A stretch of DNA of 63,832 nt from Minisyncoccota bacterium (GTDB lineage Bacteria > Patescibacteriota > Minisyncoccia > Phycocordibacterales > UBA9973). The notes under the pieces are model-generated. The model was not told the DNA's origin. It did no database searches and saw nothing but the letters and a program-made list of their open reading frames with translations. A program made the position numbers and the translations under genes. Shown piece by piece: positions 18,788-59,421 of the stretch. Every line of letters begins with the position of its first letter. The stretch's first letter is position 1. Location of the stretch: NCBI GenBank assembly GCA_035714785.1, contig DASTLQ010000016.1:1-63832 (forward strand), in the 5' to 3' direction.

Positions 18788-18862
18788 CTGTGGATAACAT
18801 GTAAGGGGACCCCTTGCATGTTATCCACAGGGTAAGGGGTCCCCTTGCATGTTATCCACAGG
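18788..18862. repeat. palindromic repeat locus R1 (three DnaA-box 9-mers)
   Basis: ctgtggataacatgtaaggggaccccttgcatgttatccacagg is a 43-nt near-perfect palindrome. A second unit ggtaaggggtccccttgcatgttatccacagg follows. Perfect TGTGGATAA/TTATCCACA at 18789-18797, 18821-18829 and 18852-18860. Confidence 0.9.
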
Positions 18863-18904
18863 TATTTGGCTTGACTTCTTATGGAAATTTAATATTATCT
18901 TAAT

Positions 18905-19117
18905 ATAATCTTATAATAGTTCTTTGATCTCCTTGTCTCTGGGGGCTTATTAGCGAAAGGTACGATTAGTCCTCGCGCTATCAGCTAATATAGCCCTTGG
19001 AGGTTTATGGGGTTTCAAAATTTAAATTGCCTCGATTTCTGATAAATGCAATTAAAGAAATAGTCCACCCACCTTTTGCGCCCATCCCCATCCGGGATCT
19101 CGGGCGCAATTTTATTT
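18905..19117 (+). ncRNA. candidate non-coding transcription unit 1 (unidentified)
   Basis: TTGACT 18871-18876, 16-nt spacer, TATTAT 18893-18898, plus further TATAAT-like hexamers. Internal stem GGGCTTATTAGC...GCTAATATAGCCC. Strong hairpin GCGCCCATCCC-catcc-GGGATctcGGGCGC at 19078-19107 followed by aaTTTTaTTT. No ORF above about 10 aa. Confidence 0.25.
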
Positions 19118-19165
19118 CCGATATTGAATGATTGACAAGTAATGAATACTTGCTAAGATGTGTAT

Positions 19166-19365
19166 AGAAATAGTTATAGAAAAGGTTTCTGGAGGTTTAG
19201 CCTCCTTCAGAAACCAGTTGTACCCTCAATGGCTCAAGCTGACTCCCTAGAAATAGTTAATTCCTCCCTATAAATGTGTGTGACGGTGATAAGGGAGTCA
19301 GCAAATTTTATTGGTTAGTTAAAATAGTTCAAAACCGCTCTACTATCTTTAGGGCGGTTTTTTTA
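19166..19365 (+). ncRNA. candidate non-coding transcription unit 2 (unidentified)
   Basis: TTGACA 19132-19137, 16-nt spacer, TAAGAT 19154-19159. Hairpin GGTTTCTGGAGG-tttag-CCTCCttCAGAAACC. 10-bp long-range stem GCTGACTCCC (19238-19247) with GGGAGTCAGC (19293-19302). Terminator AACCGCTCT..AGGGCGGTT plus TTTTTTT at 19333-19365, probably shared with the lysS 3' end. Confidence 0.25.
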
Positions 19366-20832
19366 TTTATCCTCCAATCCCCTAGGTCGCATCAGCGGGA
19401 AGAATTGTACTTCCCGAATAGGTTTGTCAGCCAAGAATGCAAAGAGCATTTCTCCAAATCCAAAACCACATGTGGGTGGCATTCCATATTCAAGCATTTC
19501 TACGAATTCCCAATCTGGCATCATTGCTTCCTTGTCCCCGGCTTTGATAAGTTCCTGCTGTACTTCAAATCTTTTTGCTTGATCCACCGGATCATTTAAT
19601 TCAGAAAATCCATTACCCACCTCGGAACCAGCGATGATGATTTGAAATCTTTCAGTAAGCTCACTATTTGATTGCATCGATTTTGAAAGTGGTGAAACTA
19701 ATTTTGGATGTCCAGTCAAAAATACCGGTCCAGCAATTTTCTTTCGGCAATATTTCCAAAGTGTATCTACTAGTCGCTCCATAGTGTCTCCATCATATAC
19801 AACCTCTAAAGCATCTAATTTCTTTTCCACTTCTTCATAAGTAGTATCCAGCACATCAATACCAGTTTCTTTTTTTATTGCATCACGATAATCTACGCGC
19901 TCCCATTTACCTCCGAGATCAAATTTAAATCCTCTTGTTTCAAAATCTGTTTTTCCAAAAACATCCACCGCAATTTTTTTATAAAGTTCCTCGGTCAAAG
20001 CCATTCCATCTTCATAGGAAGCATAGGCCCAGTAAAATTCTAGATTAGTAAATTCTTGTAAATGATTCTGATCTGAACCTTCGTTTCGATACGCTCGGCC
20101 GATTTCAAAAGTCTTTGGAAAACCAGCAGCCATAAGACGCTTTTGCCAAAGCTCTCCGATTGAAATACGTAAATATAGAGCTAGCTTGAAATCTTCGTTG
20201 TATGTTTTAAACGGAGTAGCTTCTGCTCCTCCGGTTGTAACTTCTAGGGTAGGAGTTTCTACTTCCATGAATCCTCGCTCCTTCATAAAGTTTCTTGCAG
20301 TCTCCCAAAATTTTGCCTTTTTTTCTAAAAGATCTCTCTGTTCAGGATCCATCAAAATATCCAAATATCTTTTTCTAAATCGCTCCTCGATATCTTGTAG
20401 TCCATGCCATTTTTCTGGCAAAGGCAACAAGCTCTTTGAAAGCATTCGCCACTCTTTTGCTTCAATAGTCTTTTCTCCCCTCTTGGTTACAAAAAATGTA
20501 CCATTAAGTTCGATGAAGTCTCCGATATCAACGGTCGCGCCAAACATAGAGAAGTTTTTTTCTTCCATCTGATCCTTTTTTAGTAATCCCTGAAAGGAAG
20601 CCGTGCCGTCAAACAAAGTGACGAATACAATAGCTCCCTGTCCACGCAAGGACATGATTCTTCCTGAAATCCACTTAGTTTCTTTTTTTTCTTCGAGCTC
20701 CGCAAATGAATCGATGGCTTCTTTTAAAGAAAGTTCGCGATATGACTTTGCCGGAAAAGGATCAATACCCTCTTTTTTTAAGAGTTCTAGTTTCCCTATT
20801 CGAATATTTCGTATCTCATCAAGTGAAGACAT
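19363..20832 (-). CDS. lysS: lysine--tRNA ligase (class II)
   Basis: OB-fold N-domain, class II motifs (FMEVETP, RNEG), and a C-terminal FGFGEMLF.. region typical of LysRS. Confidence 0.95.
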   Translation of the reverse strand: MSSLDEIRNIRIGKLELLKKEGIDPFPAKSYRELSLKEAIDSFAELEEKKETKWISGRIMSLRGQGAIVFVTLFDGTASFQGLLKKDQMEEKNFSMFGATVDIGDFIELNGTFFVTKRGEKTIEAKEWRMLSKSLLPLPEKWHGLQDIEERFRKRYLDILMDPEQRDLLEKKAKFWETARNFMKERGFMEVETPTLEVTTGGAEATPFKTYNEDFKLALYLRISIGELWQKRLMAAGFPKTFEIGRAYRNEGSDQNHLQEFTNLEFYWAYASYEDGMALTEELYKKIAVDVFGKTDFETRGFKFDLGGKWERVDYRDAIKKETGIDVLDTTYEEVEKKLDALEVVYDGDTMERLVDTLWKYCRKKIAGPVFLTGHPKLVSPLSKSMQSNSELTERFQIIIAGSEVGNGFSELNDPVDQAKRFEVQQELIKAGDKEAMMPDWEFVEMLEYGMPPTCGFGFGEMLFAFLADKPIREVQFFPLMRPRGLEDK

Positions 20833-20834
20833 GT

Positions 20835-21311
20835 TTAAGCAACGCTCAAGATTTTGTAGTCTACTTCCCCTCCAGGTGTAGCCACTTTTATACTCTCACC
20901 TTTTTTCTTACCGAAAAAGGCTCGCCCTAAAGGTGACTGGTTGGAAATTTTTCCTAAGGTGATATCTGCTTCCTCGGACCCTACGATTATAAATTCTTTT
21001 TCTTCTTTTTCGCCGTTTTTTCGAACAACGATCTTGGAACCAATTTCAATAATATCTCCTCCACCTCCTGACACCACCAATGACGACTGAAGGATCGATT
21101 CAATCTGAGCGATTCGAGACTCAAGCTTGCCTTGATCCTCTCTTGCCTGATGATATTCTGCATTCTCGGAAAGATCACCGAGAGATTTTGCATATTGCAA
21201 TGCTTCTAATATTTCCTTTCTTTTAGGGCCCTTTAGCTCTTCTAGCTCGGCTTCGAGCTCTTTTCTTTTGTCTTTTGAAATGTAATTTGCTGTTCTATCC
21301 ATGTTTTTCAT
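20835..21311 (-). CDS. greA: transcription elongation factor GreA
   Basis: GDLSENAEYHQAREDQ coiled-coil tip and a C-terminal FKBP-like domain (ISNQSPLGRAFFGKKKGE). Confidence 0.95.
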   Translation of the reverse strand: MKNMDRTANYISKDKRKELEAELEELKGPKRKEILEALQYAKSLGDLSENAEYHQAREDQGKLESRIAQIESILQSSLVVSGGGGDIIEIGSKIVVRKNGEKEEKEFIIVGSEEADITLGKISNQSPLGRAFFGKKKGESIKVATPGGEVDYKILSVA

Positions 21312-21363
21312 ATTATCCCCTTTCTACTCAAAAGTCTACATATAGTGTGTATAACAGAACCAA

Positions 21364-21390
21364 GGTGTAAGGGGTCCCCTTGCATGTAGG
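21364..21390. repeat. palindromic repeat locus R2 (core only, no DnaA box)
   Basis: ggtgtaaggggtccccttgcatgtagg between the divergent greA and rpsU starts. Confidence 0.7.
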
Positions 21391-21429
21391 TTGCTAAAAA
21401 TCTTTTTTATGATAATGTATAGCTTACAT

Positions 21430-21657
21430 ATGGCAAACACAGTAATCGAAGTGAAGAAAAATCCAAACGAGAACAGCTCGAGCATTTTGCGCCGTTTCTC
21501 CAGAAAAGTGCAGGAATCCAATATCATCCAAAAAGTTAAAGGAAACCGCTACAACAAGAGAAAAGATTCAAAGCTAAAGGTAAAGCAGAGCGCTCTAAAA
21601 TATCTCGGCAAGAGAAAGGAGAAAGAAAAACTCCGAAAGCTCGGCAAGATTCGCTAA
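21430..21657 (+). CDS. rpsU: 30S ribosomal protein bS21
   Basis: MANTVIEVKKNPNENSSSILRRFSRKVQESNIIQKVKGNRYNKR matches the S21 pattern. The ORF-track start at 21391 is a spurious upstream extension. Confidence 0.85.
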   Translation: MANTVIEVKKNPNENSSSILRRFSRKVQESNIIQKVKGNRYNKRKDSKLKVKQSALKYLGKRKEKEKLRKLGKIR

Positions 21658-21660
21658 CAA

Positions 21661-23143: not shown

Positions 23144-23221
23144 GAGAAATGGGTGCTTTTCTTTTTTGTGTTTTCTGGTATGATTGGGTAGTTACAAATT
23201 AAACTAACCAACTTATTTTAT

Positions 23222-24460: not shown

Positions 24461-24466
24461 AATAAT

Positions 24467-25405: not shown

Positions 25406-25630
25406 AAAGCTCTCTGTATTAAAGAGAGCTAAATGTGTCCATCTTATGATGGGTGATTCCATTCCAATGCAGAATGGACAAACAAAATTTAAAAGAACAA
25501 AACGAACAAAAAAAGGATTAATAATCTTTTTTCGGAAATTTATACTATCTCCTTCCCCATCGGTTACTTCGCGAACTTTTCACTGAAAGCAGATATGTAA
25601 ATGTCTCCGAATTAAGATAGGCCTATTATA

Positions 25631-25696
25631 ATGCATGCAAGGGGTCCCCTTGCATGTTGACCTGTGGATAACGTGTAAGGGGACCCCTTACCCCTT
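25631..25696. repeat. palindromic repeat locus R3 (one DnaA box)
   Basis: tgcatgcaaggggtccccttgcatgttgacctgtggataacgtgtaaggggaccccttaccccttg. TGTGGATAA at 25662-25670. Confidence 0.9.
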
Positions 25697-25743
25697 GAAA
25701 AAAATCGGAGATGTGTTAGTATGATGGCAAATAATTAACGAGG

Positions 25744-26342: not shown

Positions 26343-26403
26343 TGCATGCAAGGGGACCCCTTGCATGTTATCCACAGGTTGGGGTAAGGGGTCCCCTTAC
26401 ACC
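26343..26403. repeat. palindromic repeat locus R4 (one DnaA box)
   Basis: tgcatgcaaggggaccccttgcatgttatccacaggttggggtaaggggtccccttacacc. TTATCCACA at 26368-26376. Abuts the stop codon of the ABC-2 permease gene. Confidence 0.9.
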
Positions 26404-27248
26404 TAACGAGTTCCTTTGCGACGGAAGAGATAGGAGGCCAAAGGCATGAAAATCGCCACTAGACCTACGCACCATAGGATTGTGATCCAAACATGATTCC
26501 CAGTCGGTAAACCGTTCATGAGGGCCCTCATAGCCTCTATCACATGTGTCACAGGCTGATTTTCAGCAAATAATCGCAAAATCCCTGGCATAGTTTCTGT
26601 CGGTACAAAAGCAGCACTCGCAAAGGTAAGAGGGAAAACCAAAATAAACCCAAACCACTGAACGCCTTCTACAGTTTTTGCCATCAATCCCATAACTGCA
26701 GAAATCCAAGAGAAAGCTAAAGTAAACAGCACCAACAAAAGCACTATCAAAAGCCAATCAGTAAAAGAAGCCACTGGGCGAAAACCAATCAGAAGCGCAA
26801 CGACGATGAGGATTGCTGAAGAAATTATATTGCGAACTAAGTCCGCCACCACGTGCCCTGTCATCACTGCCCCACTCACAATGGGCAAAGATTTTAATCT
26901 ATCAACCAACCCTGTTTTCAAATCACTAGCTACCGAAAGCGAAGTAGTGGTAGCTCCAAAAGCAGACATCTGAATCAAGATTCCAGCTACAAGAAAATTT
27001 ACATAGCTCGTTCCTCCTGTATCAATCGCCCCTCCAAAAACATATCTGAATAAAAGCATAAACATGATGGGCTGAATTGCTAGCGACAAAAACTGATCTT
27101 TGTTTCTAAAAATATGTCGCAAGCTTCTACGAATTAGCACAAAAGAATCCGACGCTCCCCAGTAAAAGGACGAATGCGGTTTAATATTTTCTTCTTTTGG
27201 AATGGATAGTAATGTATCTTTCATATTATTGATTATTCTCTTCGGCAT
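26403..27248 (-). CDS. ABC-2 type transporter permease (DrrB-like)
   Basis: Six TM helices with the ABC-2 membrane pattern. An alternative start ATG at 27224 (MKDTLL) lies 1 nt after the ATPase stop. Confidence 0.85.
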   Translation of the reverse strand: MPKRIINNMKDTLLSIPKEENIKPHSSFYWGASDSFVLIRRSLRHIFRNKDQFLSLAIQPIMFMLLFRYVFGGAIDTGGTSYVNFLVAGILIQMSAFGATTTSLSVASDLKTGLVDRLKSLPIVSGAVMTGHVVADLVRNIISSAILIVVALLIGFRPVASFTDWLLIVLLLVLFTLAFSWISAVMGLMAKTVEGVQWFGFILVFPLTFASAAFVPTETMPGILRLFAENQPVTHVIEAMRALMNGLPTGNHVWITILWCVGLVAIFMPLASYLFRRKGTR

Positions 27249-28195: not shown

Positions 28196-28289
28196 GGGGT
28201 AAGGGGTCCCCTTGCATGTTATCCACAGGTTGGGGTAAGGGGTCCCCTTGTGGATAAAGTGTAAGGGGTCCCCTTGCATGTTGGGTCCC
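28196..28289. repeat. palindromic repeat locus R5 (two DnaA boxes)
   Basis: Three core units of ggggtaaggggtcccctt. TTATCCACA at 28219-28227 and TGTGGATAA at 28249-28257. Lies between the ABC operon start and the 3' end of the next gene. Confidence 0.9.
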
Positions 28290-28295: not shown

Positions 28296-28631
28296 TTATC
28301 CAAATCTCGCCAGAATAAAAATCGATATCACTCCAAGTGAAATACCGATGATCTCATAAACACTTAGCTCTTCTTTAAAAAAGAAAACTCCGACAAAAAC
28401 AAGCAGAATGAGAGTGGTGACAGAATAGAATACTCCGAGGGTACTGAGCTTTACGTGCTTCATCACATAAAACCATCCGAACGAAGTCAAAGCGTATAGA
28501 AACATACCCAACAGAAAGGGTCGGTACTCCATATACTTTACGCCATTTCCTGAGATCTTAATAAAATAATCTGCTAGTACTCCCACTACGGAGAGCAAAA
28601 GTATTATCAAAATCGGAATCAAGTTAGCCAT
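28296..28631 (-). CDS. small 4-TM DMT/SMR-like (EamA-type) membrane protein (111 aa)
   Basis: Four TM helices of size and spacing typical of SMR/ArnE-F-like half transporters. No diagnostic motif verified. Confidence 0.55.
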   Translation of the reverse strand: MANLIPILIILLLSVVGVLADYFIKISGNGVKYMEYRPFLLGMFLYALTSFGWFYVMKHVKLSTLGVFYSVTTLILLVFVGVFFFKEELSVYEIIGISLGVISIFILARFG

Positions 28632-46678: not shown

Positions 46679-46706
46679 TTGACATAATTCAAATTTGTTA
46701 TATAGT
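46679..46706 (+). promoter_or_regulatory. sigma70-like promoter
   Basis: TTGACA 46679-46684, 16-nt spacer, TATAGT 46701-46706. GGAG lies about 9 nt upstream of ATG 46749. Confidence 0.5.
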
Positions 46707-46748
46707 ACTCCCAAACACGTTCTAAAACAAAAAAATAGGAGTTCTCTT

Positions 46749-48209
46749 ATGAAAACTTTGGTAGTTCTATTCGCTCTATTGTTCTCGTCCCTATTATGGG
46801 GACAGAGTTTATCCTTAAGCCTTACGGCAAGTCCCTTAAATGTAACATATGGCGGTCCAGTGGTCCTTACATGGACAACCACGGGCGCTTCATATTGTTA
46901 TGCAACACAGGGGGCGGAAGGATGGACCGGAGTTAATTACCTACACGGTTCATATTATGTAGGAGCTTTGTACTCCCCCACAACATTTTGCTTAACTGCC
47001 GTCGATAATTTTGGAAATTCGGTTACGGAATGCGTGACCGTAAATGTCGACAACCGCAAGTATGTTTATCTGCCACATCGCGTCGCAGGAGCTGGGACAA
47101 ATATTTCTGTGCCCCTAACCTCAGGCGCATCAAGCGCTTTCCAAGGGTTTGAGATGAGAATCCAAAGTAATGGAAGTCTGAAGCCTAATTATTTTGAACT
47201 AGGGTGGAAATTCTATCCAAACTGGATGTATGCCTCTAATACTTACAATAGCTACTTTCGTGTAGCAGCAGTAGGTAATACTGTAAATATTCTTGGCAGG
47301 GATCTTATTGGTACTTTATACTTTAAAGTTTCTGAGAGCGCCCAAGGCCAAAGTAATTATCCTTGGATGGAATTTTTTGACAGTGCGACATTCTGGAGTA
47401 TCACCAGCGGAGGGTTACAAATAATTAATATTCCGCCTCATTTGTACGGAGACATGAACAGCGATCTCACTTTCAACATCTCAGATGGAATTGCCCATAA
47501 AAATCTACTTGGGACATGGATGTCTGACGAGTTAAGAGTACGCGCAGATTTAAATGGAAATGGAGAAGTAAATACATTCGACACTTATCTTGTTCTATCA
47601 AAGATAGTGAACCCAGAAATGATTTTTCCAATTTTCGACTACAATTATTTTCCTAATCTCACTCCAATTCTAATGACATGGGAGAAACTCCCAGATGGAC
47701 AGTGGGGATTGTTTTCAGATGAAAAGATTACCAATTTCGATTTAATTGGGAGTGATTTTTCTTCACTTAATGCTGATGGATGGACAAAAATAGTTGATAA
47801 CCAACTGTTTTTTGTAAATCAGCTGGGGATAGAGAACCGCCCGATCTTAATCTCTCCTTCCCCCGTTCCAATTAATGGGACAGCAAACGAAGGAAGAAAA
47901 ATCATAATCTCCACCCCAACTGGAGTGGAAGAAGGGATAGAGATAAATACTTATTCTTTATCTCAAAACTATCCTAATCCTTTCAATCCATCAACCACAA
48001 TTAGCTTTACGCTAGCCCAAGCAGCAAGTGTAGAACTGAAAGTGTACGACGTCCTCGGCAACGAAGTTGCCACCTTAGTTAATGAGGAAAAACCGGCAGG
48101 TAAGCACGAAGTAAAATTCGATGCTACTAGCCTGTCTTCCGGCTTATATATTTATAAAATAGTTGCCGGAAACTTCATTGAAACTAAAAAAATGGTTTTA
48201 ATGAAGTAA
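46749..48209 (+). CDS. secreted cohesin/dockerin-like protein with T9SS-type (Por_Secre_tail) C-terminal sorting domain (486 aa)
   Basis: Signal peptide MKTLVVLFALLFSSLLWGQ. Dockerin/EF-hand-like DMNSDLTFNISD and DLNGNGEVNTFD. The C-terminus LSQNYPNPFNPSTTISFTL...VYDVLGNEVATLV...AGKHEVKFDATSLSSGLYIYKIVAGNF..TKKMVLMK is the classic T9SS CTD pattern. Confidence 0.85.
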   Translation: MKTLVVLFALLFSSLLWGQSLSLSLTASPLNVTYGGPVVLTWTTTGASYCYATQGAEGWTGVNYLHGSYYVGALYSPTTFCLTAVDNFGNSVTECVTVNVDNRKYVYLPHRVAGAGTNISVPLTSGASSAFQGFEMRIQSNGSLKPNYFELGWKFYPNWMYASNTYNSYFRVAAVGNTVNILGRDLIGTLYFKVSESAQGQSNYPWMEFFDSATFWSITSGGLQIINIPPHLYGDMNSDLTFNISDGIAHKNLLGTWMSDELRVRADLNGNGEVNTFDTYLVLSKIVNPEMIFPIFDYNYFPNLTPILMTWEKLPDGQWGLFSDEKITNFDLIGSDFSSLNADGWTKIVDNQLFFVNQLGIENRPILISPSPVPINGTANEGRKIIISTPTGVEEGIEINTYSLSQNYPNPFNPSTTISFTLAQAASVELKVYDVLGNEVATLVNEEKPAGKHEVKFDATSLSSGLYIYKIVAGNFIETKKMVLMK

Positions 48210-48257: not shown

Positions 48258-48372
48258 TGCATGTAAGGGGACCCCTTACCCTGTGGATAACATGTAAGGG
48301 GTCCCCTTGCATGTTAAAGGGTCCACCTTCGCCTCTGGCGAAGGCGGACCCTTGGAGGGGTCCCCTTACACC
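48258..48372. repeat. palindromic repeat locus R6 (one DnaA box plus 15-bp-stem hairpin module)
   Basis: tgcatgtaaggggaccccttaccctgtggataacatgtaaggggtccccttgcatg, then GGGTCCaCCTTCGCC-tct-GGCGAAGGCGGACCC at 48319-48351, then ttggaggggtccccttacacc. TGTGGATAA at 48282-48290. Confidence 0.9.
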
Positions 48373-48379
48373 TAATGTG

Positions 48380-48450
48380 TGCGGCCGGCGAGAATCGGAC
48401 TCGCGCCCGATGCTTGGGAAGCACCAGTTCTACCACTAAACTACGGCCGC
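48380..48450 (-). tRNA. tRNA-Gly (anticodon CCC)
   Basis: Minus strand GCGGCCG-TA-GTTT-AGTGGTA-GAAC-T-GGTGC-TTCCCAA-GCATC-GGGC-GCGAG-TCCGATT-CTCGC-CGGCCGC-A. Confidence 0.9.
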
Positions 48451-48471
48451 ATATTTTTCCACCGCATTTCC

Positions 48472-48678
48472 CTACTCTTTCTTCCCCTTACCTGTAAATT
48501 TATTAACCATGTGTTTAACATTTAGGTATGCCTTTCGTATTTCTCGAGTAGCATTCTCTGCTTCCTTCATGACCTTGAATAACTTAAAAAGCACCAAGGC
48601 AATCAGAGCGCCGATCACGATGATCACCACTGATGTTGTTCCGTAAAATATTGTTTGTGTTACTTCTAGAGCGTCCAT
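48472..48678 (-). CDS. hypothetical small membrane protein (68 aa)
   Basis: One TM (TSVVIIVIGALIALVLFKLF) and a basic C-terminus. Confidence 0.45.
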   Translation of the reverse strand: MDALEVTQTIFYGTTSVVIIVIGALIALVLFKLFKVMKEAENATREIRKAYLNVKHMVNKFTGKGKKE

Positions 48679-48695
48679 ATGAGTATTATACTAAA

Positions 48696-49076
48696 TTATT
48701 TGAATATATTCCTTATAAATTTCCAGAAACTTCCCTTTTCCTCCTCTATCGACTGAGTGGAAAAATTTTCATCCTCTACTATTACTATCACTTTTTCTCC
48801 CTCTTTCACAAATCCAAATTTTTCACGAATATTGTCTTCCACTCCTCGATCCGTTTCTAGATATTCAATGTCTCGAGTGAGCTTTTCTTTTTTTTCTGAA
48901 AGCTCAGCCACTTTTTCTTCAGCAGTTTCTCTCTTGGCCTCTGTCTCTCTCATTTTTTCAAAAAATCCAAACACACTCCAACTGAATAGCACCACTATAG
49001 CAAAGAGAAGTACCAAAAAAGGAGGTGATTCAACTATCCTGCGTAGCCTGTTTTTCTTGGGTTGGAAATTTCTCAT
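48696..49076 (-). CDS. septum formation initiator (FtsB/DivIC-family) protein
   Basis: N-terminal TM, a coiled coil, then DRGVEDNIREKFGFVKEGEKVIVI, typical of the DivIC/FtsB C-terminal motif. Confidence 0.7.
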   Translation of the reverse strand: MRNFQPKKNRLRRIVESPPFLVLLFAIVVLFSWSVFGFFEKMRETEAKRETAEEKVAELSEKKEKLTRDIEYLETDRGVEDNIREKFGFVKEGEKVIVIVEDENFSTQSIEEEKGSFWKFIRNIFK

Positions 49077-49229
49077 AATATGCTAGTATTATTACATGCT
49101 TTTTCATAAAAAACATCAGAAGAAAGTGCAGGTGATTTGGGTCATTCTTTGCGTCCTCATCATTGCCAGCATGATTCTTTTATACTCCCCTATTTTCGCT
49201 ACCAGATAAGCGGCTATCCTACCTGTCGG

Positions 49230-51044
49230 CTATTCGCCTGATCGCATCATCTTCAGAAACACATCCTGAGGAATATTTACTTTTCCTTTATCCCTCATGC
49301 GAGCCTTTCCTTTTTTCTGCTTTTCAAGAAGCTTCTTTTTTCGGCTGACATCTCCTCCACCCACTACCTTGCTTCCATGCATGAGCACATCTTTTCGAAA
49401 GGCTGAAACTCCTTCTGAGGCTATTATTCTTCCCAACGCCTTTGCTTGAACCTTGAAGGCAAACTGCTGGCGTGGAATGACGCTCTTTAGGCGCTCTACC
49501 TGACTCCGGGCTTCTTCTTCTAATCTGCGTCTAGAAACCACTCTACAAAACGCAGCGACAGGCTCATCGGCCACGAGGATATCCATTCGCACCACATCCG
49601 CTTTCTTGTATCCTCCAAGCTCGTATGATATAGAGCCGTAGCCGGAGGTAATACTTTTCAGATCATCAAAGAAATTTCTCATAAGCTCTCGTAGTGGCAT
49701 TTCAAGATCGATGGATGAACGATTGTCTCCGAAATTTTCAGTGGTATGCACTACCCCCTCGTGATCAAACAAAAATGGCATAAGTACGCTGGTATAGTGA
49801 ACAGGTGTGATTATCTTCACTCGCACCCAAGGTTCATGAATTTCCGCAATCAAGCTATCGTCTGGAAAGAAATGTGGTGAGTAAATAATTTTTTCTTGCT
49901 TGTTTCGTAGCACCACTTTGTAGGTGATAGACGGCATGGTGATCACGAGCTCAAGGTTAAATTCTCTTTTCAATCTTTCGGTAATTATTTCCAAATGTAG
50001 CATTCCTAAAAATCCACATCTAAAACCTTTCCCGAGAGTTCCTGAAGCTTCTTCTTCATATGAAAAAGCGGAATCCGACAGACGAAGTCGGCTGAGTGCA
50101 AGCTTTAGCTCAGGAAAATAATCTGCGTCCTCAGGATATACAGAAGCCCAGACCACTGGATTTGGATTAAAGTATCCGGGAAGCATAGGGGCTGGCTTTT
50201 TTGCAATGGTTACCGTATCTCCCACCGAAGCAACTCCGGGTTTTTTAATTCCTGTCACAATGTATCCTATTTCTCCGGCTCCAAGTGAAGCACGAGGATT
50301 TTCTTCAGGAGCAAATATTCCGACTTCACCGGCGATAAATTTTTCTTCGGCGGCGGAGAATAAAAGTGCGTCTCCTTTTTTTAGAGCACCGTCAAATACT
50401 CGAACATATACGATGATTCCGCGATGATTGTCATATTTAAAATCAAAAACTAAAGCACGAGTTCCATCTTCGCTTTCGCTTAATTCTTTTTCTGGGTGCG
50501 GTACTTTTTCAACAATTTTTGAAAGTAATTCGTTCACTCCTTGCCCTGTCTTTCCAGACACTTCCATGATCTCGTCGGGGTTCATATCGAGAAGTAGTGC
50601 CACCTCCATCTTTACTTCATCTACTCGAGCTAGTGGAGAATCCACCTTGGAAACAGCTGGGATTATCACTAGCCCACTTTCTCTAGCCATTTGGAGGGTA
50701 GTGAGAGTTTGAGCTTGTACCCCTTGGGTAGAATCTACCAGTAGAATAGAGCCCTCAACCGCTTTTAAAGCCCTAGAAACCTCGTAGGAGAAGTCTATAT
50801 GCCCAGGGGTGTCTATTAGGTTCAAAATGTAATTTTCGCCTCCTTGCTCAAATTCCATGCGTACAGGCTGCATCTTTATGGTGATCCCTCTTTCCCGCTC
50901 AAGCTCCATAGAATCAAGCACCTGGGCTCTCATTTTTCGCTCTGGAATAGTATTGGTGATTTCAAGCATGCGATCAGCCAGAGTACTCTTTCCGTGGTCT
51001 ATGTGGGCGATAATGCTGAAATTTCTGATATTTCTTAAGTGCAT
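49230..51044 (-). CDS. lepA: translation elongation factor 4 (LepA)
   Basis: IRNFSIIAHIDHGKSTLADR, DTPGHIDF, and the LepA-specific C-terminal domain. Confidence 0.96.
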   Translation of the reverse strand: MHLRNIRNFSIIAHIDHGKSTLADRMLEITNTIPERKMRAQVLDSMELERERGITIKMQPVRMEFEQGGENYILNLIDTPGHIDFSYEVSRALKAVEGSILLVDSTQGVQAQTLTTLQMARESGLVIIPAVSKVDSPLARVDEVKMEVALLLDMNPDEIMEVSGKTGQGVNELLSKIVEKVPHPEKELSESEDGTRALVFDFKYDNHRGIIVYVRVFDGALKKGDALLFSAAEEKFIAGEVGIFAPEENPRASLGAGEIGYIVTGIKKPGVASVGDTVTIAKKPAPMLPGYFNPNPVVWASVYPEDADYFPELKLALSRLRLSDSAFSYEEEASGTLGKGFRCGFLGMLHLEIITERLKREFNLELVITMPSITYKVVLRNKQEKIIYSPHFFPDDSLIAEIHEPWVRVKIITPVHYTSVLMPFLFDHEGVVHTTENFGDNRSSIDLEMPLRELMRNFFDDLKSITSGYGSISYELGGYKKADVVRMDILVADEPVAAFCRVVSRRRLEEEARSQVERLKSVIPRQQFAFKVQAKALGRIIASEGVSAFRKDVLMHGSKVVGGGDVSRKKKLLEKQKKGKARMRDKGKVNIPQDVFLKMMRSGE

Positions 51045-51099
51045 GGGTTCATATTAGCAGAAAATACCTTATTTTCCAAAATAAATACGCGTATTTGTA

Positions 51100-52779
51100 T
51101 TAAAGTTCTTCCTGTGGAGGAACGATCACTTTTGATTTCCAGAATTTTGTTTTGAAAGCTGCTACTAGATCCGCCAATTCCCTGTTTCTTAGTAAGTGCA
51201 ACACTATCACCCCGGCAGCGATTCCAAATATTCCCGAGAAGAATCCTTGCAAGAAGACTCCCCAAAATGTAGTCGTTCCAAATATTGGTGAAAGAATATT
51301 TAGGAAGAAGTAGGTGACGGCGCCTATCAAAAATGACGCTCCAAGTGAATGGAAGAATGTTCGGCTGACAAATTCTTCCTTTGGAAGATATTCCTTTTTT
51401 AAGAAAATCCCCAGCAGGGCCAAGTTTATGATAGTTCCAAAAGAATATGCCAGAGGCAGTATCAACACTTCAGTTCCAGGAATGTCTGAGACTTTTAGAA
51501 GTGATTCTATAAAATATTGAAAAATTGGATAATGAGAAAAGGCGTAATTGAATATTATTGCAAAAAATACAATCCACGAGGCAGAAATCAAATTTATTAG
51601 AAGTGGTTTCCTTGTATTTCCCGCTGCATAGTAAGCTCGAGCAAATAATGCGACCAAACCTTGAGCGGTGACGGAAATGGCAAATACCGCGAGAGCTGCA
51701 GCCACTAATCTAGTATTTTCCCAAGAAAAATTTGAAGATCCAAGTACCACTCGGACGATTTGCGCACGAAGAACGATAAACAAAAAAGTAGCGGGCAGTG
51801 ACCAGAATATAATTTGCCGGGCAGCTGATTTCAGCTGTTCTTTAAATTCACTCATCATTCCTTTTGAAAAATATTTGGTGAGAGTTGGGAAAGCGGCTAC
51901 TGCATACGAAAGTCCCACTATTCCCAGTGGAACTGACTGAAGACTAAGCGAAAGGTTAAAAATGGAAATAGAACCTGGGGTTAGATATGAAGCAATCATC
52001 ACCAAGATAGTAAGTGCAATGTTGTTAAACGACAATCCCAAAGTACGAGGCATAGAAACTAAGATCATTTCCCATACTCCACGGTAATCAATATTTAGAG
52101 AAAACCTCGGCATAAAACCGGAGGTAGCAGAAGCAAATACTTGAATCAAAAAGTGAAGCAAGGATCCGAGTACTACCCCTAGACCCAAACCTTGAATCCC
52201 AAATAGTGGATACAAGAGCACGACACCGATGATTATTCCAACGTTGTAAAAAATCGGGCTGAGGGAGTAAAGGAAAAATCTACGGAAAAGCTGAGTGACT
52301 GAGCCAAACAAATTTGAAAGACCTAGTAGAATCGGAGAGAGCAACATGATTCGAGAAAGCAGAGTTACTTTCTCCTGATAAAAAGAAGTGAATCCGGGTG
52401 CAATATATGGAGAAATTTCCGGCATGAAAATAAAAAATATTGCTGATACTAACACCATGCCTGCCAAGAATACTGTGAAGACATCATTCAAAAACTTTTG
52501 CGCTTCAATGGTGATTTTTTCCCCCGACATACGTCGAAGAATAAACGGAATGAGGACCGTGATTGATGCCAGAGATGCGATGGAAATAAATATAAGATCA
52601 GGAATTCTAAAAGCAGCATAATAGGAGTCCAGCATTGGCGACGGCCCGATAAAGTGAGCCAATGCTCGATCCCTAAAAAGTCCTAGAATCTGCGAGAGGA
52701 AAGCAAAAAACCCTAGTAGGATTGCAGCCTGATTTAAATTCTCGTATTCTTTGCTGAAAATTTTTAGAATTTTCTCCAT
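51100..52779 (-). CDS. murJ: lipid II flippase MurJ (MviN family)
   Basis: About 14 TM helices. The N-terminus LGLFRDRALAHFIGPSPMLDSYYAAFRIPDLIF matches the MurJ consensus. Confidence 0.9.
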   Translation of the reverse strand: MEKILKIFSKEYENLNQAAILLGFFAFLSQILGLFRDRALAHFIGPSPMLDSYYAAFRIPDLIFISIASLASITVLIPFILRRMSGEKITIEAQKFLNDVFTVFLAGMVLVSAIFFIFMPEISPYIAPGFTSFYQEKVTLLSRIMLLSPILLGLSNLFGSVTQLFRRFFLYSLSPIFYNVGIIIGVVLLYPLFGIQGLGLGVVLGSLLHFLIQVFASATSGFMPRFSLNIDYRGVWEMILVSMPRTLGLSFNNIALTILVMIASYLTPGSISIFNLSLSLQSVPLGIVGLSYAVAAFPTLTKYFSKGMMSEFKEQLKSAARQIIFWSLPATFLFIVLRAQIVRVVLGSSNFSWENTRLVAAALAVFAISVTAQGLVALFARAYYAAGNTRKPLLINLISASWIVFFAIIFNYAFSHYPIFQYFIESLLKVSDIPGTEVLILPLAYSFGTIINLALLGIFLKKEYLPKEEFVSRTFFHSLGASFLIGAVTYFFLNILSPIFGTTTFWGVFLQGFFSGIFGIAAGVIVLHLLRNRELADLVAAFKTKFWKSKVIVPPQEEL

Positions 52780-52828
52780 TTAATCAGGCCGCCCTAAGAG
52801 GGTTTTATGTCTCGAGCGATATTAATTT

Positions 52829-54931
52829 TTATTCTTCGATAGTTTCCGCGTCAGGCTGAGTAGGCACTACTGGTACTGTTGCAGCAGGGGCGCCACGCTT
52901 CAATGAATTTACGTAATCAGTCAATTCTTGATTGCCAGGGACCAATGAAAGTGCGGTCTCAGCGTACGATACTGCTTTTGCATTGTTTCCAGAATTTTGT
53001 TCAATTTGAGAAAGTACAAGCAAGGCATCTACATAGTTTGGTTTCAAGGCAAGAGCTTCTTCTCCCAATATTCTAGCATCATCAACTCTGTTGTTTGCGA
53101 ATGATACTCTAGCCATGGCAAGCTTTATTCCTGGGTTAAGTGGATTCAATGTAGCAGCGGTAGTATATGCATCAAATGCTTGACCATAAGCTCCTTCTAC
53201 TCCTAAAGCTCCAACAGTATTGTATACGGAGCCTAAAGATGCGAAGTTTAGATAATTTGTCTTGTCATAAGCTGTAGCAAGCTGGGCACTTCCTATTGCT
53301 TCTTCGATGCTTGCTTGCAATACTGCCTGTTCTTCTTCGGTTAATGCTGAACCTTTTGCTGCTAGTTCCCCTATCTTTGTCATATAAACCTGTGAGTAGG
53401 TTCGGAGGTATAGATCATTTGAGTGAAGTGATACTGCTCGCAACATTGAAGTTTCTGCTGCACTGATTTCAGTAGCAGAAAGAGTTTTCTGGAAGAATGG
53501 GATCGAAGCAAATCTTTCTACATACTTAAAGCCAGCAGCTGCTGACACGAGCATGAGAAGTACTAATCCCAAGATAGAAAAGAAACTCTTTCGTGGATCA
53601 TCAAGGAATGAAAATTCGAAATCTCCATTTTGTCTGTAAGTAGAAGCTAGTCCTGCAAATGCTCCCGTAAAGGCAAAAGCCAAGAGGAAGATGACTGGAC
53701 CAGTAACATAGAAGAATGCTGAAACGAAAAGATAGAAAGCCAACACAAAGAACACGGCCATTTCTTTTCCTGCGCTAGACTGGATACTTGCAAACAATGA
53801 TTTTACTCCAGCAGAGATAAATAGGTAGAAGAATACAAGAAGAGCCAAGATACCGAGGGCTCCTGTGGTCACTGCCAATGTAGGAATTAAACCAGAACCG
53901 GCGCCAAAGGAAGTATCCCAGAAGATTGTTGAGTTAATAGAACCAGACTTGTACATATTCCAAGCTTCTCCAAATCTATTTGGACCAGTACCGAAAAGTG
54001 GGCTATCTGCTAAAGCCTGTTTTGCCACCTCCAAGGTAGCTCCAAACGAAGGACCAACTTCCATAGTAGAAAGACCTAGGGTCTCAGGCAGGTATCCTCC
54101 GATAAATTGTCCTGACATAAAGAACAAGAGTGACACTAATACTAGTCCGAAAGAAAATAGAGGGAAATGGCCTTTCTTGCCTTCTTCTCCTTCTTTATTT
54201 CGTAGACTGTAAGAGAAAGAAAGTTTGTAGATGAACACAAGTAAAGCAAACACTCCCAAGAGCACCCAGACAAGCAATAGATTTACGGCAGCGGAGACAA
54301 ACAATGAAAGTACCACCAAGAATCCGAGGATTCCTTTTGCTACTTTTGGTAATGAAAAGAATTCGATCACAAACAATGAAAGTACAGTAGAGAATCCAGC
54401 AAAGATACCGAAGGCATTCCATGAGCCTAGTAGTGTATCAGTCTTTGCTCCCAAAATTCCGAGAGAAAGCATTTCAGGAATAAACATTCGAAGTACTTGG
54501 AAAATCAAAAGTGCTAGAGAAGAAGCGATTACGCCCCAGAAAACCATTCGAGCGTTTTTGATGTCTCTTAAAATAATTGATGATAGGAAAAGCAACAGGA
54601 ATGCTGAGAGCATAAAGAAGAATGTTCCTGTGTCTAGCATTGTTCCAAACAATGAAACTTTCATTGCTGGAGAAAAGAGTGCAGAAAGCAAGAATGCTAG
54701 GACCACGCCTAAGCCTGCAATAATAATAGGAGAGCGTGGGATGGAAAGCTTTCCATCAGAAAACCTAGCTGCCGTCCAGAATATCAACGACACCACAAGT
54801 CCTACTATTAATAATAGGCCTTTGCTTGTTTCTGCCGGTACAGTTACGAAAGGCAAAAAGAAAACTGGTAAGAGCACGATAGTTGCGAAAAGCGACCAGA
54901 AAGAAATTCTATCCAAGATGTTTGGTAACAT
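52829..54931 (-). CDS. O-antigen ligase (Wzy_C)-like polytopic membrane protein with C-terminal TPR repeats (700 aa)
   Basis: At least 10 TM helices in the first 450 or so aa. The C-terminal soluble region has TPR-like repeats (ALKPNYVDALLVLSQIEQNSGNNAKAVSYAETALSLVPGN). Confidence 0.75.
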   Translation of the reverse strand: MLPNILDRISFWSLFATIVLLPVFFLPFVTVPAETSKGLLLIVGLVVSLIFWTAARFSDGKLSIPRSPIIIAGLGVVLAFLLSALFSPAMKVSLFGTMLDTGTFFFMLSAFLLLFLSSIILRDIKNARMVFWGVIASSLALLIFQVLRMFIPEMLSLGILGAKTDTLLGSWNAFGIFAGFSTVLSLFVIEFFSLPKVAKGILGFLVVLSLFVSAAVNLLLVWVLLGVFALLVFIYKLSFSYSLRNKEGEEGKKGHFPLFSFGLVLVSLLFFMSGQFIGGYLPETLGLSTMEVGPSFGATLEVAKQALADSPLFGTGPNRFGEAWNMYKSGSINSTIFWDTSFGAGSGLIPTLAVTTGALGILALLVFFYLFISAGVKSLFASIQSSAGKEMAVFFVLAFYLFVSAFFYVTGPVIFLLAFAFTGAFAGLASTYRQNGDFEFSFLDDPRKSFFSILGLVLLMLVSAAAGFKYVERFASIPFFQKTLSATEISAAETSMLRAVSLHSNDLYLRTYSQVYMTKIGELAAKGSALTEEEQAVLQASIEEAIGSAQLATAYDKTNYLNFASLGSVYNTVGALGVEGAYGQAFDAYTTAATLNPLNPGIKLAMARVSFANNRVDDARILGEEALALKPNYVDALLVLSQIEQNSGNNAKAVSYAETALSLVPGNQELTDYVNSLKRGAPAATVPVVPTQPDAETIEE

Positions 54932-54996
54932 TATTTTATATTTATATGATTAATTAATATTAGGTTTATTATACTAAGCACAACCCCCAAAAGCAA

Positions 54997-57333: not shown

Positions 57334-58349
57334 TATTTTTCAAACGGTGGATATATATCAGGATCGATGGTTCTTTCAAAGCAAGTACGTCCAGCCTCGT
57401 GATCCCAAGATTCATTCATACCACCTCCAGGATATGGATATGCCATATCCATTACAGCTTGCTTTCCAAAATATGGCATTGGTCGCATGCCTCCACCATA
57501 CTCTCTCCATCCTTGTGGCATCGGCATAGAAAAATCAGCACAGAGCTCAAATGTAAGTGGACCTTTTAGAGAATACTCGTATGCTTTTCCTTTTTCAAAT
57601 TCTGGCTCTACGGGAATAGAGTATCCAGTCAGTGGGCTCACTAGAGCTCCTAGATTTTCTGGAAGAACTTCTTTCTGTTGCCAAAAATTAATTACTTGAT
57701 ATTGAATGTTCTGCAAATCATTTACTCGTCGATCATCAAGTCGGTACTTTCTCTGCTCGCTAGGGCTACCCATGACGGAGAAACTGCATACAATAGTTGC
57801 GATGACTAGGATCGAGCTCACGGAAGCAAAGATAACTCCGCTCTTTGGAATATTCCATCCAAATACCTGATTGTTTTTCAAATCAAAAATATAATATTTA
57901 CCAACCAAGATTGCGGTAAACAAAGTGACCAGTACTTTCCAAATAAATCGAGTAGTGATTTCACCTGAAATGAAATATCGAATGAGGGCTACCAAGTCTA
58001 TCGCCAACACTAAAGCTGATAGAAACAGAACTATATAAATCACCCATTTTCGGATAGTATTATCGAGCACTCCCATTTCTCCTCGGCTGTACTTTTTCCA
58101 ATAGTAGGTAATGATCAGAAAGGCTGGGAAAAAGATGATGAGGGTAGCGAGCGACATTCGGATGCTCTCATAATCATAAGTTGAATAGCCATACTGATAG
58201 CTAGAATTCAAAACGTCCGGAAACCGTTTATTTAAAGTCTCAAAAACCAAGTTTAAAAACGACGTGACCGAAGTAATAAGAGTAATAAGGACCCCGAGGT
58301 TCAAGAAAAAGAACCCCACATTTAGCTTTGGCTTTGTATTATTTTCCAT
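57333..58349 (-). CDS. hypothetical membrane protein (338 aa; multi-TM N-half, soluble C-half)
   Basis: Start set to ATG 58349 (MENNTKPKLNVGFFFLN). The ORF-track N-terminus MDNMQGDPLH... is read-through of repeat locus R7. Confidence 0.6.
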   Translation of the reverse strand: MENNTKPKLNVGFFFLNLGVLITLITSVTSFLNLVFETLNKRFPDVLNSSYQYGYSTYDYESIRMSLATLIIFFPAFLIITYYWKKYSRGEMGVLDNTIRKWVIYIVLFLSALVLAIDLVALIRYFISGEITTRFIWKVLVTLFTAILVGKYYIFDLKNNQVFGWNIPKSGVIFASVSSILVIATIVCSFSVMGSPSEQRKYRLDDRRVNDLQNIQYQVINFWQQKEVLPENLGALVSPLTGYSIPVEPEFEKGKAYEYSLKGPLTFELCADFSMPMPQGWREYGGGMRPMPYFGKQAVMDMAYPYPGGGMNESWDHEAGRTCFERTIDPDIYPPFEK

Positions 58350-58368
58350 AGTTTTGATTATATCACAA

Positions 58369-58540
58369 GGGTCCGCCTTCGCCAGAGGCGGGTGTAAGGG
58401 GTCCCCTTGCATGTTATCCACAGGTAAGGGTGGTAGGTGTGGATAAAGTGTAAGGGGTCCCCTTGCATGTTATCCACAGTGTGAAAGGGTCCGCCTTCGC
58501 CTCTGGCGAAGGCGGACCCTTGGAGGGGACCCCTTAGACC
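58369..58540. repeat. palindromic repeat locus R7 (three DnaA boxes plus hairpin module plus truncated inverted hairpin copy)
   Basis: TTATCCACA at 58414-58422 and 58470-58478. TGTGGATAA at 58438-58446. GGGTCCGCCTTCGCC-tct-GGCGAAGGCGGACCC at 58487-58519. A truncated inverted copy gggtccgccttcgccagaggcg starts at 58369. The locus ends at the methyltransferase stop codon. Confidence 0.9.
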
Positions 58541-59421
58541 TAGCGGGACCAGATGGCAGTATTGGAAAGAGGGATTAGGCGTCCGTTGGATTTTTCCAAA
58601 AGACAAAGCTCTCCTGATTCAGTTTTACCTCCAAGGTCTTTCATGGCCTCTGACAGTGCATATCCAAGAGAAAGCGAAGAAGAGTCTATCGCGTAAGAAT
58701 TCAATATCACAAAAAGCGGATCATCACTCAAGATTTTTCTAGCCTGATCTAAAAGTTGGGCCAGATTTTCTTCTATCTTCCATACCTCCCCTTTTGGACC
58801 TCGTCCAAATTTTGGCGGATCCATGATGATGCAGTCGTATTTATTTCCTCGTTTCTCTTCCCTCTCCATAAATTTCAAAACATCATCAAGTATTACTCGC
58901 ATTGGTAAATCTTCTAATCCTGAAAGTTTTTGATTTTCTTTTGCCCAATCTATGCTTTGCTTGGAAGCATCCACATGAGTAACCTCTGCCCCTGCTCGTA
59001 ATGCAAACAAACTCGCCACACCTGTATAACCAAACAGATTTAGAAACTTAACGGGACGTGTAAGGGGACCCCTTACACCTGAAATTTTTTCTTCAATAAA
59101 ATCCCAATGCGCTGATTGCTCTGGGAAAAATCCTAAATGCCTAAAAGGAGTGGGGCTGGCAATAAACTTTATTCCTTTGTATTCCATTGGCCATCTTTCT
59201 GCAAAAGTCCTATTCATTCTCCATCCGCTTTTACCACCATCCTTGGAAGACACAAATCTTCCGTCCGCCTTTTTCCATTCTGCTGTCAGAGTCCTTTTCC
59301 AGACTGCATCTTCATATGGGCGAGCTAAAATATGATCGCCAAATCTTTCCAGCTTTTCGCTTTCTCCCGTATCCAGCAATTCGTATTCTTCCCAATCTTT
59401 TGAATATAAAATGTTTATCAT
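58540..59421 (-). CDS. class I SAM-dependent RNA methyltransferase (RlmI/RlmK-like)
   Basis: Motif I LNLFGYTGVASL and motif IV IIMDPPKFGRG. Start set to ATG 59421 (MINILYSKDW) to avoid overlapping the upstream gene. Confidence 0.85.
   Translation of the reverse strand: MINILYSKDWEEYELLDTGESEKLERFGDHILARPYEDAVWKRTLTAEWKKADGRFVSSKDGGKSGWRMNRTFAERWPMEYKGIKFIASPTPFRHLGFFPEQSAHWDFIEEKISGVRGPLTRPVKFLNLFGYTGVASLFALRAGAEVTHVDASKQSIDWAKENQKLSGLEDLPMRVILDDVLKFMEREEKRGNKYDCIIMDPPKFGRGPKGEVWKIEENLAQLLDQARKILSDDPLFVILNSYAIDSSSLSLGYALSEAMKDLGGKTESGELCLLEKSNGRLIPLSNTAIWSR
59058..59078. repeat. palindromic repeat core R8 inside a CDS
   Basis: gtgtaaggggaccccttacac is a 10-bp arm palindrome. It is read in frame on the minus strand as G-V-R-G-P-L-T, just upstream of SAM motif I. 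Confidence 0.85.

Follow-up and report, generated by a model that had tools for sequence, protein, structure and literature searches.

Palindromic repeats carrying consensus DnaA boxes in a CPR bacterium, and a predicted DnaA operator upstream of mraZ in its relatives

We analysed a 63,832-nt stretch of bacterial DNA (the window) that contains a dispersed family of GC-rich palindromic repeats with consensus DnaA boxes. The organism is a member of the Candidate Phyla Radiation (CPR, Patescibacteria) of the Paceibacteria/Nomurabacteria type. Its FtsZ has a best identity of 83%, to proteins labelled Paceibacteria/Nomurabacteria, and the gene order murF-pbp-ftsL-rsmH-mraZ-lysS-greA / S21-ybeY-ftsA-ftsZ-trxB, which covers the division and cell wall (dcw) cluster, is common to the window and to Paceibacteria/Nomurabacteria genomes. 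The GC skew across the window is monotonic and negative, therefore the window lies on one replichore. Repeats of the family occupy eight loci. Seven of these are intergenic and lie at gene ends, while the eighth, placed at 59058-59078 in a preliminary description of this DNA, lies in frame within a methyltransferase gene.

The consensus DnaA box in most bacteria studied is TTATCCACA (PMC6784150). Exact matches on both strands of the 63.8-kb window numbered 12, starting at 13667, 18789, 18821, 18852, 25663, 26368, 28219, 28249, 48282, 58414, 58438 and 58470, while dinucleotide-preserving shuffles of the window averaged 0.58 matches, with at most 4 in any shuffle. Eleven copies sit within the repeat family. 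The twelfth, at 13667, lies outside it, within a small MerR/excisionase-like open reading frame (ORF; 13414-13716), and is a chance-level copy. The enrichment of perfect 9-mers within dispersed palindromes that the preliminary description had reported is thus real, and ten of its eleven box positions were correct; the box given as 25662 starts at 25663, and its remark that every copy seen lies within the family, made without an exhaustive scan, does not extend to the one at 13667. The hairpin core AAGGGGNCCCCTT was matched 15 times against 0.02 expected. One-mismatch boxes were not enriched in the window (8 found, against 16.8 expected for zero and one mismatch combined). All 11 family boxes are the exact 9-mer, and nine of them carry the G-flanked 11-mer GTTATCCACAG (G-TTATCCACA-G), which is the 11-mer of both R1 and R4 at the E. 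coli oriC. We checked the R1 and R4 sequences in E. coli genomes, where each is single-copy beside mioC; R1 reads CTGTGGATAAC, the form found in the repeat boxes.

For comparison we used two samples of related genomes. The first comprised the mraZ regions of 80 GTDB species representatives of the clade (861 kb), and the second the loci around the methyltransferase gene (395 kb), together about 1.26 Mb and about 160 loci. Perfect boxes reach a density of 1.9 per 10 kb in the window, compared with a background of 0.13-0.17 in the relatives when the mraZ sites are excluded. Likewise, GGGGNCCCC is present in 17 copies in the window and in 2 copies in the 1.26 Mb of related genomes.

The family is a mosaic of three modules, which we named hairpin A, box B and hairpin C. 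Hairpin A has the form (CATG or GGTG) Y-AAGGGG-N-CCCCTT-R (CATG or CACC), and the hairpins start with GTAAGGGG or CATGYAAGGGG. Box B is G-TTATCCACA-G, joined to hairpin A by a CATG, CACG or CACT linker, with a G usually next. Hairpin C, which the preliminary description had not listed, is 37 nt long and reads AAGGGTCCGCCTTCGCC-TCT-GGCGAAGGCGGACCCTT; it is present in two full copies (48317-48353 and 58485-58521) and one truncated inverted copy (58367-58390). Several composites share their ends, with TTTT abutting GCATGYAAGGGG on the left and CCCCTTACACCTAA on the right. Read by eye, the junctions of the eight loci showed no target-site duplications. The linkers around the boxes vary while all 11 boxes stay intact.

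Locus 1 (18788-18862) lies directly 5' of the mraZ promoter and consists of a minus-strand box (18789-18797), hairpin A, a plus-strand box (18821-18829), hairpin A and another plus-strand box (18852-18860); its two right-hand A-B units form a 31-nt tandem duplication. The 43-nt palindrome reported earlier is present here (18788-18830) but is only near-perfect, with 20 of 21 arm positions paired and one T.G. Locus 2 (21346-21388), in the divergent spacer between greA and the S21-like gene, consists of one hairpin A (21365-21388) and, at 21346-21354, the relaxed box TGTGTATAA. Locus 3 (25634-25693) lies between trxB and a GtrA-like gene, adjoins a promoter-like site and reads hairpin A, minus-strand box (25663-25671), hairpin A. 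Locus 4 (26343-26406) begins directly after an intrinsic terminator and looks like a complete unit, with hairpin A, a plus-strand box (26368-26376), GGTTGGG, hairpin A and the right end ACACCTAA, which contains the TAG stop of an ABC permease gene (26403-26405, minus strand).

Locus 5 (28196-28283), between an EamA-like gene and the start of an ABC ATPase gene, has three copies of hairpin A separated by a plus-strand box (28219-28227) and a minus-strand box (28249-28257), and a one-mismatch box lies at 28296. Locus 6 (48258-48376) is placed between a terminator and the 3' end of a tRNA-Gly gene, 4-5 nt from the tRNA, and is composed of hairpin A, a minus-strand box (48282-48290), hairpin A, hairpin C (48317-48353), a degenerate hairpin A and the right end ACACCTAA. 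Locus 7 (58367-58545) fills the spacer between the methyltransferase gene and the DUF5671 gene and holds the TAG stop of the methyltransferase (58540-58542). It reads truncated inverted hairpin C, hairpin A, plus-strand box (58414), minus-strand box (58438), hairpin A, plus-strand box (58470), hairpin C (58485-58521), degenerate hairpin A and the right end AGACCTAG. Locus 8 (59056-59080, minus strand) is a single hairpin A, GGTGTAAGGGGTCCCCTTACACG on the minus strand, in frame within a loop of the 2igt-like S-adenosylmethionine-dependent (SAM) methyltransferase.

The boxes at loci 1, 5 and 7 form clusters of two or three within 40-75 nt. Two of the intergenic loci stand immediately after intrinsic terminators and two fill short spacers. 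On the stop-bearing strand the right end of the element reads TAG-GTN-TAA, and it provides the stops of the ABC permease and the methyltransferase. The hairpins themselves were considered as terminators and rejected, since they have no T-tracts, two follow directly on real terminators and they are oriented independently of transcription. An Rfam search of the window gave only tRNAs above the gathering threshold, and a relaxed search of locus 1 gave generic microRNA-hairpin noise. A RAYT/IS200-like or other transposase, suggested earlier as something to look for, was not found: neither the window, with about 40 ORFs scanned, nor the fetched loci yielded a transposase, RAYT or DnaA gene. There is no insertion sequence within the window, and neither a dnaA gene nor oriC in the 1.4 Mb of DNA that we fetched.

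In fold predictions for single strands, the composites were far more stable than shuffled sequences (z-scores between -3.9 and -10.8). Inverted pairs at loci 1, 5 and 7 contain seven of the 11 boxes, and the predicted folds put these in hairpin stems. Eight hairpins are asymmetric, 5'-GT...GC-3' with a T.G pair. All of them lie on the plus strand, independent of the direction of the neighbouring gene, and none was found in the opposite polarity within the window. This is suggestive of a strand-specific process.

Since the window is derived from a metagenome and its end is also a contig end in another assembly, the repeats could be an assembly or chimera artefact, a worry already raised in the preliminary description. 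An independent assembly of run SRR10492801 contains two contigs that correspond to window positions 48340-54970 and 58507-63832 with 100% identity. One of them reads through locus 8, where the coding insertion preserves the reading frame, and they break only inside repeats: both terminate within hairpin C, as is expected of a true multi-copy repeat, at which a de Bruijn graph branches. The repeat-bearing sequence is not an assembly artefact. Since one of these contigs stops exactly where the window does, the window is probably a complete contig of the metagenome. A guide array of the CRISPR or TIGR type would be another way to explain clustered repeats; however, each locus has only 1-4 units, unique spacers and a regular period are lacking, and none of the annotated window ORFs is a cas or tas gene. 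We regard both explanations, artefact and guide array, as exceedingly unlikely.

The palindrome family is rare. The hairpin core had no match in either sample of relatives (861 kb and 395 kb), and profile and BLAST searches of the same 1.26 Mb also gave none. The exact hairpin-plus-box pattern was not matched in 185,579 GTDB species representatives, nor the exact hairpin-plus-CATGTT pattern in JGI metagenome contigs. Filled and empty sites could be compared between species, as had been proposed, and the family is absent from the orthologous sites, more than 160 related loci. In IMG/VR, the 17-nt hairpin core GTAAGGGGNCCCCTTAC occurs once in each of seven unrelated phage contigs (L168-L174), six with 68-70% GC and one with 56% GC, and none has boxes. 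We treated these singletons in unrelated phages as chance matches and not as members of the family. At least five of them have TTGAC or GTCAA within a few bases, and the core there may be an unrelated phage operator or terminator motif. Hairpin C had no match in IMG/VR.

Copies hidden in predicted proteins were looked for with six-frame peptides of the repeats. This gave one true match, the tRNA-guanine transglycosylase (Tgt) HEU0085471.1 on a 53-kb contig of a 'Candidatus Paceibacterota' metagenome-assembled genome; a HMMER search with a 66-residue repeat peptide returned only two chance matches, both to unrelated repeat proteins. The protein carries HARGPLQGSAFARGEGGPFNMQGDPLHP, the translation of an A-C-A composite, near-identical to the translation of locus 6. 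Since Tgt carries this translation, the family extends past the window, and the copy is probably in the same genome. The insert is 28 residues long, while the shortest homologues lack it and have six residues in that loop.

In the window itself, hairpin A of locus 8 is translated in frame as GVRGPLT in a loop of the methyltransferase. The protein reads KISGVRGPLTRPVK where relatives read KIKNAKRPIK, and KISGVRGPLTRPVKFLNLFGYTG against KIKNAKRPIKFLNLFGYTG in most relatives. At this point 2igt, a homologue of solved structure, has four residues fewer. The insert sizes are 21 nt for hairpin A at locus 8 and about 84 nt for the Tgt composite. The nearest relatives of the window and family proteins share 83% (FtsZ), 73% (methyltransferase) and 79% (Tgt) identity.

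We compared the family with known repeats. It resembles the RAYT-associated repetitive extragenic palindromes (REP) of enterobacteria and pseudomonads and their mosaic assemblies (BIME) in consisting of short, GC-rich, imperfect palindromes in a more AT-rich genome, placed at gene ends and after terminators. Mosaic clusters of alternating orientation, few linker types, the lack of target-site duplications and the hint of single-strand polarity are further common features. However, the hairpins begin with GTAA or CATG, no GTAG-type tetranucleotide was found 5' of them, the scanned ORFs include no RAYT (a Y1 HUH transposase whose gene REPs typically flank), the phylum is a CPR phylum and some copies lie in frame within genes. 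The host-factor sites known from BIMEs are those of IHF, gyrase and Pol I, not DnaA. Unlike miniature inverted-repeat transposable elements (MITE), the family has no pair of terminal inverted repeats and target-site duplications, and no parent insertion sequence is present in the window. A precedent for a DnaA box within the DNA on which a transposition machinery acts is the outside end of IS50/Tn5, an element that uses DnaA as a host factor. With its 19-bp ends and 9-bp duplications, however, Tn5 is a DDE transposon that moves autonomously, whereas neither a transposase nor a duplication was seen here.

Rickettsia palindromic elements (RPE) are palindromic repeats of a small genome that are tolerated as in-frame insertions in surface loops of unrelated housekeeping proteins (PMC10969869). 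Our family shares with them the in-frame insertion at permissive loops, in the methyltransferase and Tgt. It differs in its shorter inserts (21 nt or about 84 nt, compared with about 100-150 nt in RPEs), in being mostly intergenic, in carrying a DnaA box and in its host, which is not Rickettsia. No sequence relation to RPEs is expected; phylum and element size differ. The CIR repeat, dispersed and reported to be strictly intergenic, is named for the cell-cycle DNA methyltransferase CcrM (PMC10969869); there the cell-cycle protein is a different one, and our family also has in-frame coding copies. CRISPR and TIGR arrays differ from its irregular clusters, which have no unique spacers and no cas or tas genes. 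The family resembles REP/BIME and RPE in behaviour but lacks some defining features of each. We found no description in the literature of a prokaryotic repeat family built on consensus DnaA boxes, in agreement with what the preliminary description had stated for palindromic families.

The relatives showed where such a box is normally found. In 78 of the 80 genomes TTATCCACA is present 5' of mraZ, on the mraZ coding strand and in one orientation, usually as AGTTATCCACAG; in one of the two genomes without it the region is cut by the contig end. The E. coli oriC box R4, taken with its flanks, is the identical 12-mer. Of the 78 sites, 74 have AG as the left flank and 58 have G as the next base. 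In 64 relatives, 31-32 nt separate the end of the box from the -10 hexamer downstream of it. Across L007-L086 the box lies about 83-250 nt upstream of mraZ, and these genomes have hardly another copy within 12 kb. Most often AGTTATCCACAG is followed, after about 9 nt, by a -35-like TTG(G/C), then 17 nt, TATAAT and two GTGGGAAA repeats. These GTGGG repeats 5' of mraZ we take to be MraZ operators, as in E. coli and Mollicutes. The mraZ sites account for 78 of the 93 TTATCCACA boxes in the 861 kb, and the methyltransferase sample holds 5 boxes, which is the chance level. Relaxed boxes TTATNCACA were not enriched in the relatives (25 compared with about 20 expected), except for a weak inverted copy in the mraZ 5' untranslated region (UTR) of eight of the 78.

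In the window, the mraZ promoter core (18728-18758, minus strand) has its -10 TATAAT at 18753-18758 and two GTGGGAAA repeats at 18728-18743, and it is kept in all aligned relatives. On the mraZ coding strand, the box at 18789-18797 (minus strand) is TTATCCACA, and 30 nt lie between its end and the -10 hexamer downstream. Since its orientation is conserved, its spacing to TATAAT is 30 nt and the MraZ repeats are next to it, we take this box to be the ancestral dcw/mraZ site, with the repeat cluster attached on its distal side. The clade-wide R4-grade box at about -52 to -44 of the dcw promoter (centre about -48) is very probably a real operator, predicted to bind DnaA, because it is conserved in 78 of 80 relatives at a fixed distance from the promoter. 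Thus the earlier suggestion of DnaA-dependent sites is upheld for the dcw-upstream site only; no relative has an equivalent of the remaining ten boxes. For Paceibacteria/Nomurabacteria this amounts to a clade rule of one R4-grade DnaA box at a fixed site before mraZ/dcw, and it suggests direct control of the division and cell wall operon by the initiator in bacteria with very few regulators. We found no description of this box in the literature.

The mraZ 5' UTR of four relatives (L060, L061, L074 and L028) holds a further perfect box in inverted orientation, TGTGGATAA, just after the MraZ repeats and 16-36 nt before the ATG; four more relatives have TGTGNATAA there. In one case, read by eye, the inverted box is about 11 nt from the last GTGGG repeat. 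It could be a weak DnaA box or a third MraZ repeat.

Is the 9-mer of the repeats really a DnaA site? If the family offers about 100 positions for a 9-mer, each with a probability of 2/4^9, we estimate the odds of a chance match to the consensus at about 1e-3, so that chance mimicry is unlikely. The wording of the preliminary description, that the ends of a mobile family happen to mimic DnaA boxes, is not supported: the 9-mer is exact in 11 of 11 boxes, GTTATCCACAG is present in nine and one copy is the conserved mraZ box. We also considered that the 9-mer, including the one before mraZ, is read not by DnaA but by the element's own recombinase or by another dyad-binding protein that recognises A-B-A. 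The box always adjoins hairpin A through a short CATG, CACG or CACT linker, and HUH/IS200-type and REP enzymes do read a short conserved sequence beside a hairpin; PMC6006769 describes such hairpin-recognising HUH enzymes. This reading would leave the low odds of the match, which moreover runs into the R1/R4 flanks, to coincidence. The 12-mer is also kept before mraZ in genomes without the element, where there is no reason for a recombinase site. We therefore find it quite unlikely, and module B is predicted to be a true high-affinity site for DnaA and no mere look-alike. For the hairpin core itself, a dyad-binding protein other than DnaA, the third option of the preliminary description, is conceivable.

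The explanation that we favour, with moderate confidence, is that the loci form a lineage-restricted, non-autonomous mosaic family of the REP/BIME/RPE kind, which took up the clade's DnaA operator and multiplied it more than 10-fold. The family behaves as selfish DNA, as seen from its mosaics, its placement at gene ends, its absence from relatives and its coding insertions. The earlier option of a mobile REP/MITE-like family is in this respect supported by the mosaic modules, the absence from more than 160 related loci, the gene-end placement and the two in-frame insertions. In the ancestral state, one box at about -52 to -44 before the mraZ/dcw promoter would let DnaA modulate transcription of the division and cell wall cluster. 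Hairpin A may then have landed beside the mraZ operator, or otherwise picked up a copy of the box. The A+B unit would have multiplied in both orientations and by local tandem duplication, raising the density of perfect boxes more than 10-fold in this lineage. Spread may have gone through single-stranded hairpin intermediates, driven by a trans-acting HUH/RAYT-type or other enzyme encoded elsewhere, or through template switching; we infer single-stranded mobilisation because the modules are palindromic, there are no duplications and the polarity is uniform. Since locus 1 is physically continuous with the mraZ site, capture from that site would be the simplest source of the box, and we consider it plausible.

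Several findings weigh against this explanation. The repeat boxes have only weak similarity to the mraZ site beyond 11-12 nt. A perfect box is lacking in locus 2, in locus 8 and in the Tgt insert. Hairpins thus occur alone and B is therefore an optional module, and the association of A with B could be local history. The polarity bias is based on five loci only, with p of about 0.06 per locus. No transposase was found among the scanned ORFs, a single copy (in Tgt HEU0085471.1) was found outside the window, and the window proteins were found only in run SRR10492801, so there are no intraspecies filled and empty alleles to compare.

Alternatively, the boxes may be DnaA control sites selected by the host. 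The clusters of loci 1, 5 and 7 would then work in the manner of E. coli datA or the DnaA-box clusters of B. subtilis, titrating DnaA or extending its regulon in a bacterium with few other controls on initiation, and the hairpins would be only the vehicle. The boxes are perfect, have the flanks of the strongest E. coli sites, are clustered and have all stayed intact amid variable linkers; one is at the conserved operator and others are near promoter-like sites. As extra-origin high-affinity boxes that could sequester DnaA, they are indeed comparable to datA and the B. subtilis clusters. Those, however, are single, conserved and non-repetitive, while our family consists of recent repeats absent from relatives. 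The 160 related loci have boxes at chance level outside mraZ, and the clade manages without them. Near-identical copies fit a recent burst as well as they fit selection, and the hairpins spread without boxes too, also into coding loops. Selection by the host is, in our judgement, unlikely. Since the relatives live without the extra boxes, we consider a by-product likelier than a function that the host needs, and any titrating or regulatory effect of the boxes is probably incidental rather than the reason for the family.

The folds of the inverted box pairs brought to mind the A-site of the ABC primosome, a single-stranded hairpin with DnaA box R1 in its stem (PMC6127211). The pairs at loci 1, 5 and 7 match it in structure, with a consensus box and R1-type flanks in a predicted stem. 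The extra boxes of the family that we favour would be expected to bind DnaA, many of them double-stranded in extruded stems in the manner of the A-site. One could go further and propose that the inverted pairs form hairpins at which DnaA loads the helicase, aiding lagging-strand priming, fork restart or the conversion of a single-stranded element. The placement of seven of the 11 boxes in inverted pairs within predicted stems, and the precedent of the R1-carrying hairpin (PMC6127211), point in this direction. The support is by structural analogy alone, however; four boxes are incompletely paired, namely those of loci 3, 4 and 6 and, in any given fold, one of locus 1, and the relatives lack such sites. 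Moreover, the A-site is one signal of plasmid or phage origin, known from work in vitro, whereas our family consists of dispersed chromosomal repeats known from sequence. We consider such a role very unlikely.

Even so, with ten extra candidate high-affinity sites in 64 kb, DnaA could be titrated, helicase loaded or nearby promoters affected. A bolder proposal is that a mobile hairpin captured an initiator operator and spreads functional DnaA sites through a reduced CPR genome, many as A-site-like helicase-loading stems, thereby rewiring, at the present time, initiation control, fork restart or the DnaA regulon, and that it may use DnaA as a host factor for mobilisation. We offer this proposal tentatively and regard it as rather doubtful. 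If the boxes bind DnaA, this lineage would have gained, via selfish DNA, more than 10 times its relatives' density of high-affinity initiator sites, a natural experiment on the DnaA titration tolerated by a tiny genome.

Inserting palindromes in frame into genes seems a general trait of the clade. In many relatives, other lineage-specific inserts are present in the methyltransferase loop (L112/L126, L125/L132, L096 and L158) and in the Tgt loop (P0125-P0204), and the Tgt lengths among relatives range from 397 to 493 aa. Of five methyltransferase-loop inserts that were folded, four (L105, L115, L112 and L125) gave strong hairpins, from -28 to -49 kcal/mol, and that of L096 gave a weaker one (-16); the L158 insert folds to -33 with no obvious palindrome. 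If general, an RPE-like colonisation of CPR coding genes would matter for annotation and protein modelling.

Another palindromic element is widespread in relatives. It has a core of about GCCTTCGCCCTCGGAGACAAAAGGACAGGGGACCCACG flanked by variable A/T-rich inverted repeats, and it is found in frame in the methyltransferase loop, 3' of mraZ (expected within rsmH) and in intergenic DNA. Copies lie in L105 (3385-3460), L115, L123, L124, L133, L159, L130, L016 (6695-6737), L086 (6712), L047 (5381), L054 (6818), L147 (4043), L112 (4117), L100 (3261), L098 (4712) and L103 (6795). From genome to genome these copies share about 75-96% identity, while the proteins of the same genomes share only about 65-70%. 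The element had no match in Rfam, where a relaxed search gave generic microRNA-hairpin noise. We considered hairpin C as its descendant and rejected this, since the two have GCCTTCGCC in common but the resemblance is too weak.

Between the repeat cluster of locus 1 and lysS lies a non-coding, hairpin-rich stretch of about 450-500 nt (18863-19362), which relatives do not have (their lysS-mraZ spacer is about 130-250 nt). At its 5' side, the plus strand reads box 18852, then GGTATTTGGC-TTGACT-16 nt-TATTAT, a layout like that of the mraZ promoter. The stretch ends at a bidirectional terminator (19331-19361), has no match in Rfam and may encode a new small RNA. Just 3' of the stray box at 13667 there is a hairpin, GTAAGGCCACCACCCTTAC (13719-13737), with GTAAGG/CCTTAC arms like those of hairpin A and a different centre; downstream of it lie a strong promoter-like site and a tiny ORF for a membrane protein. 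The hairpin may be a degenerate relative of the palindrome family. Elsewhere in the window, a giant ORF of 2899 aa (4288-12987, minus strand) contains about 13 tandem 168-nt (56-aa) repeats, and the ORF at 46695-48209 has a T9SS-type sorting domain and a dockerin domain, which are features of secreted proteins.

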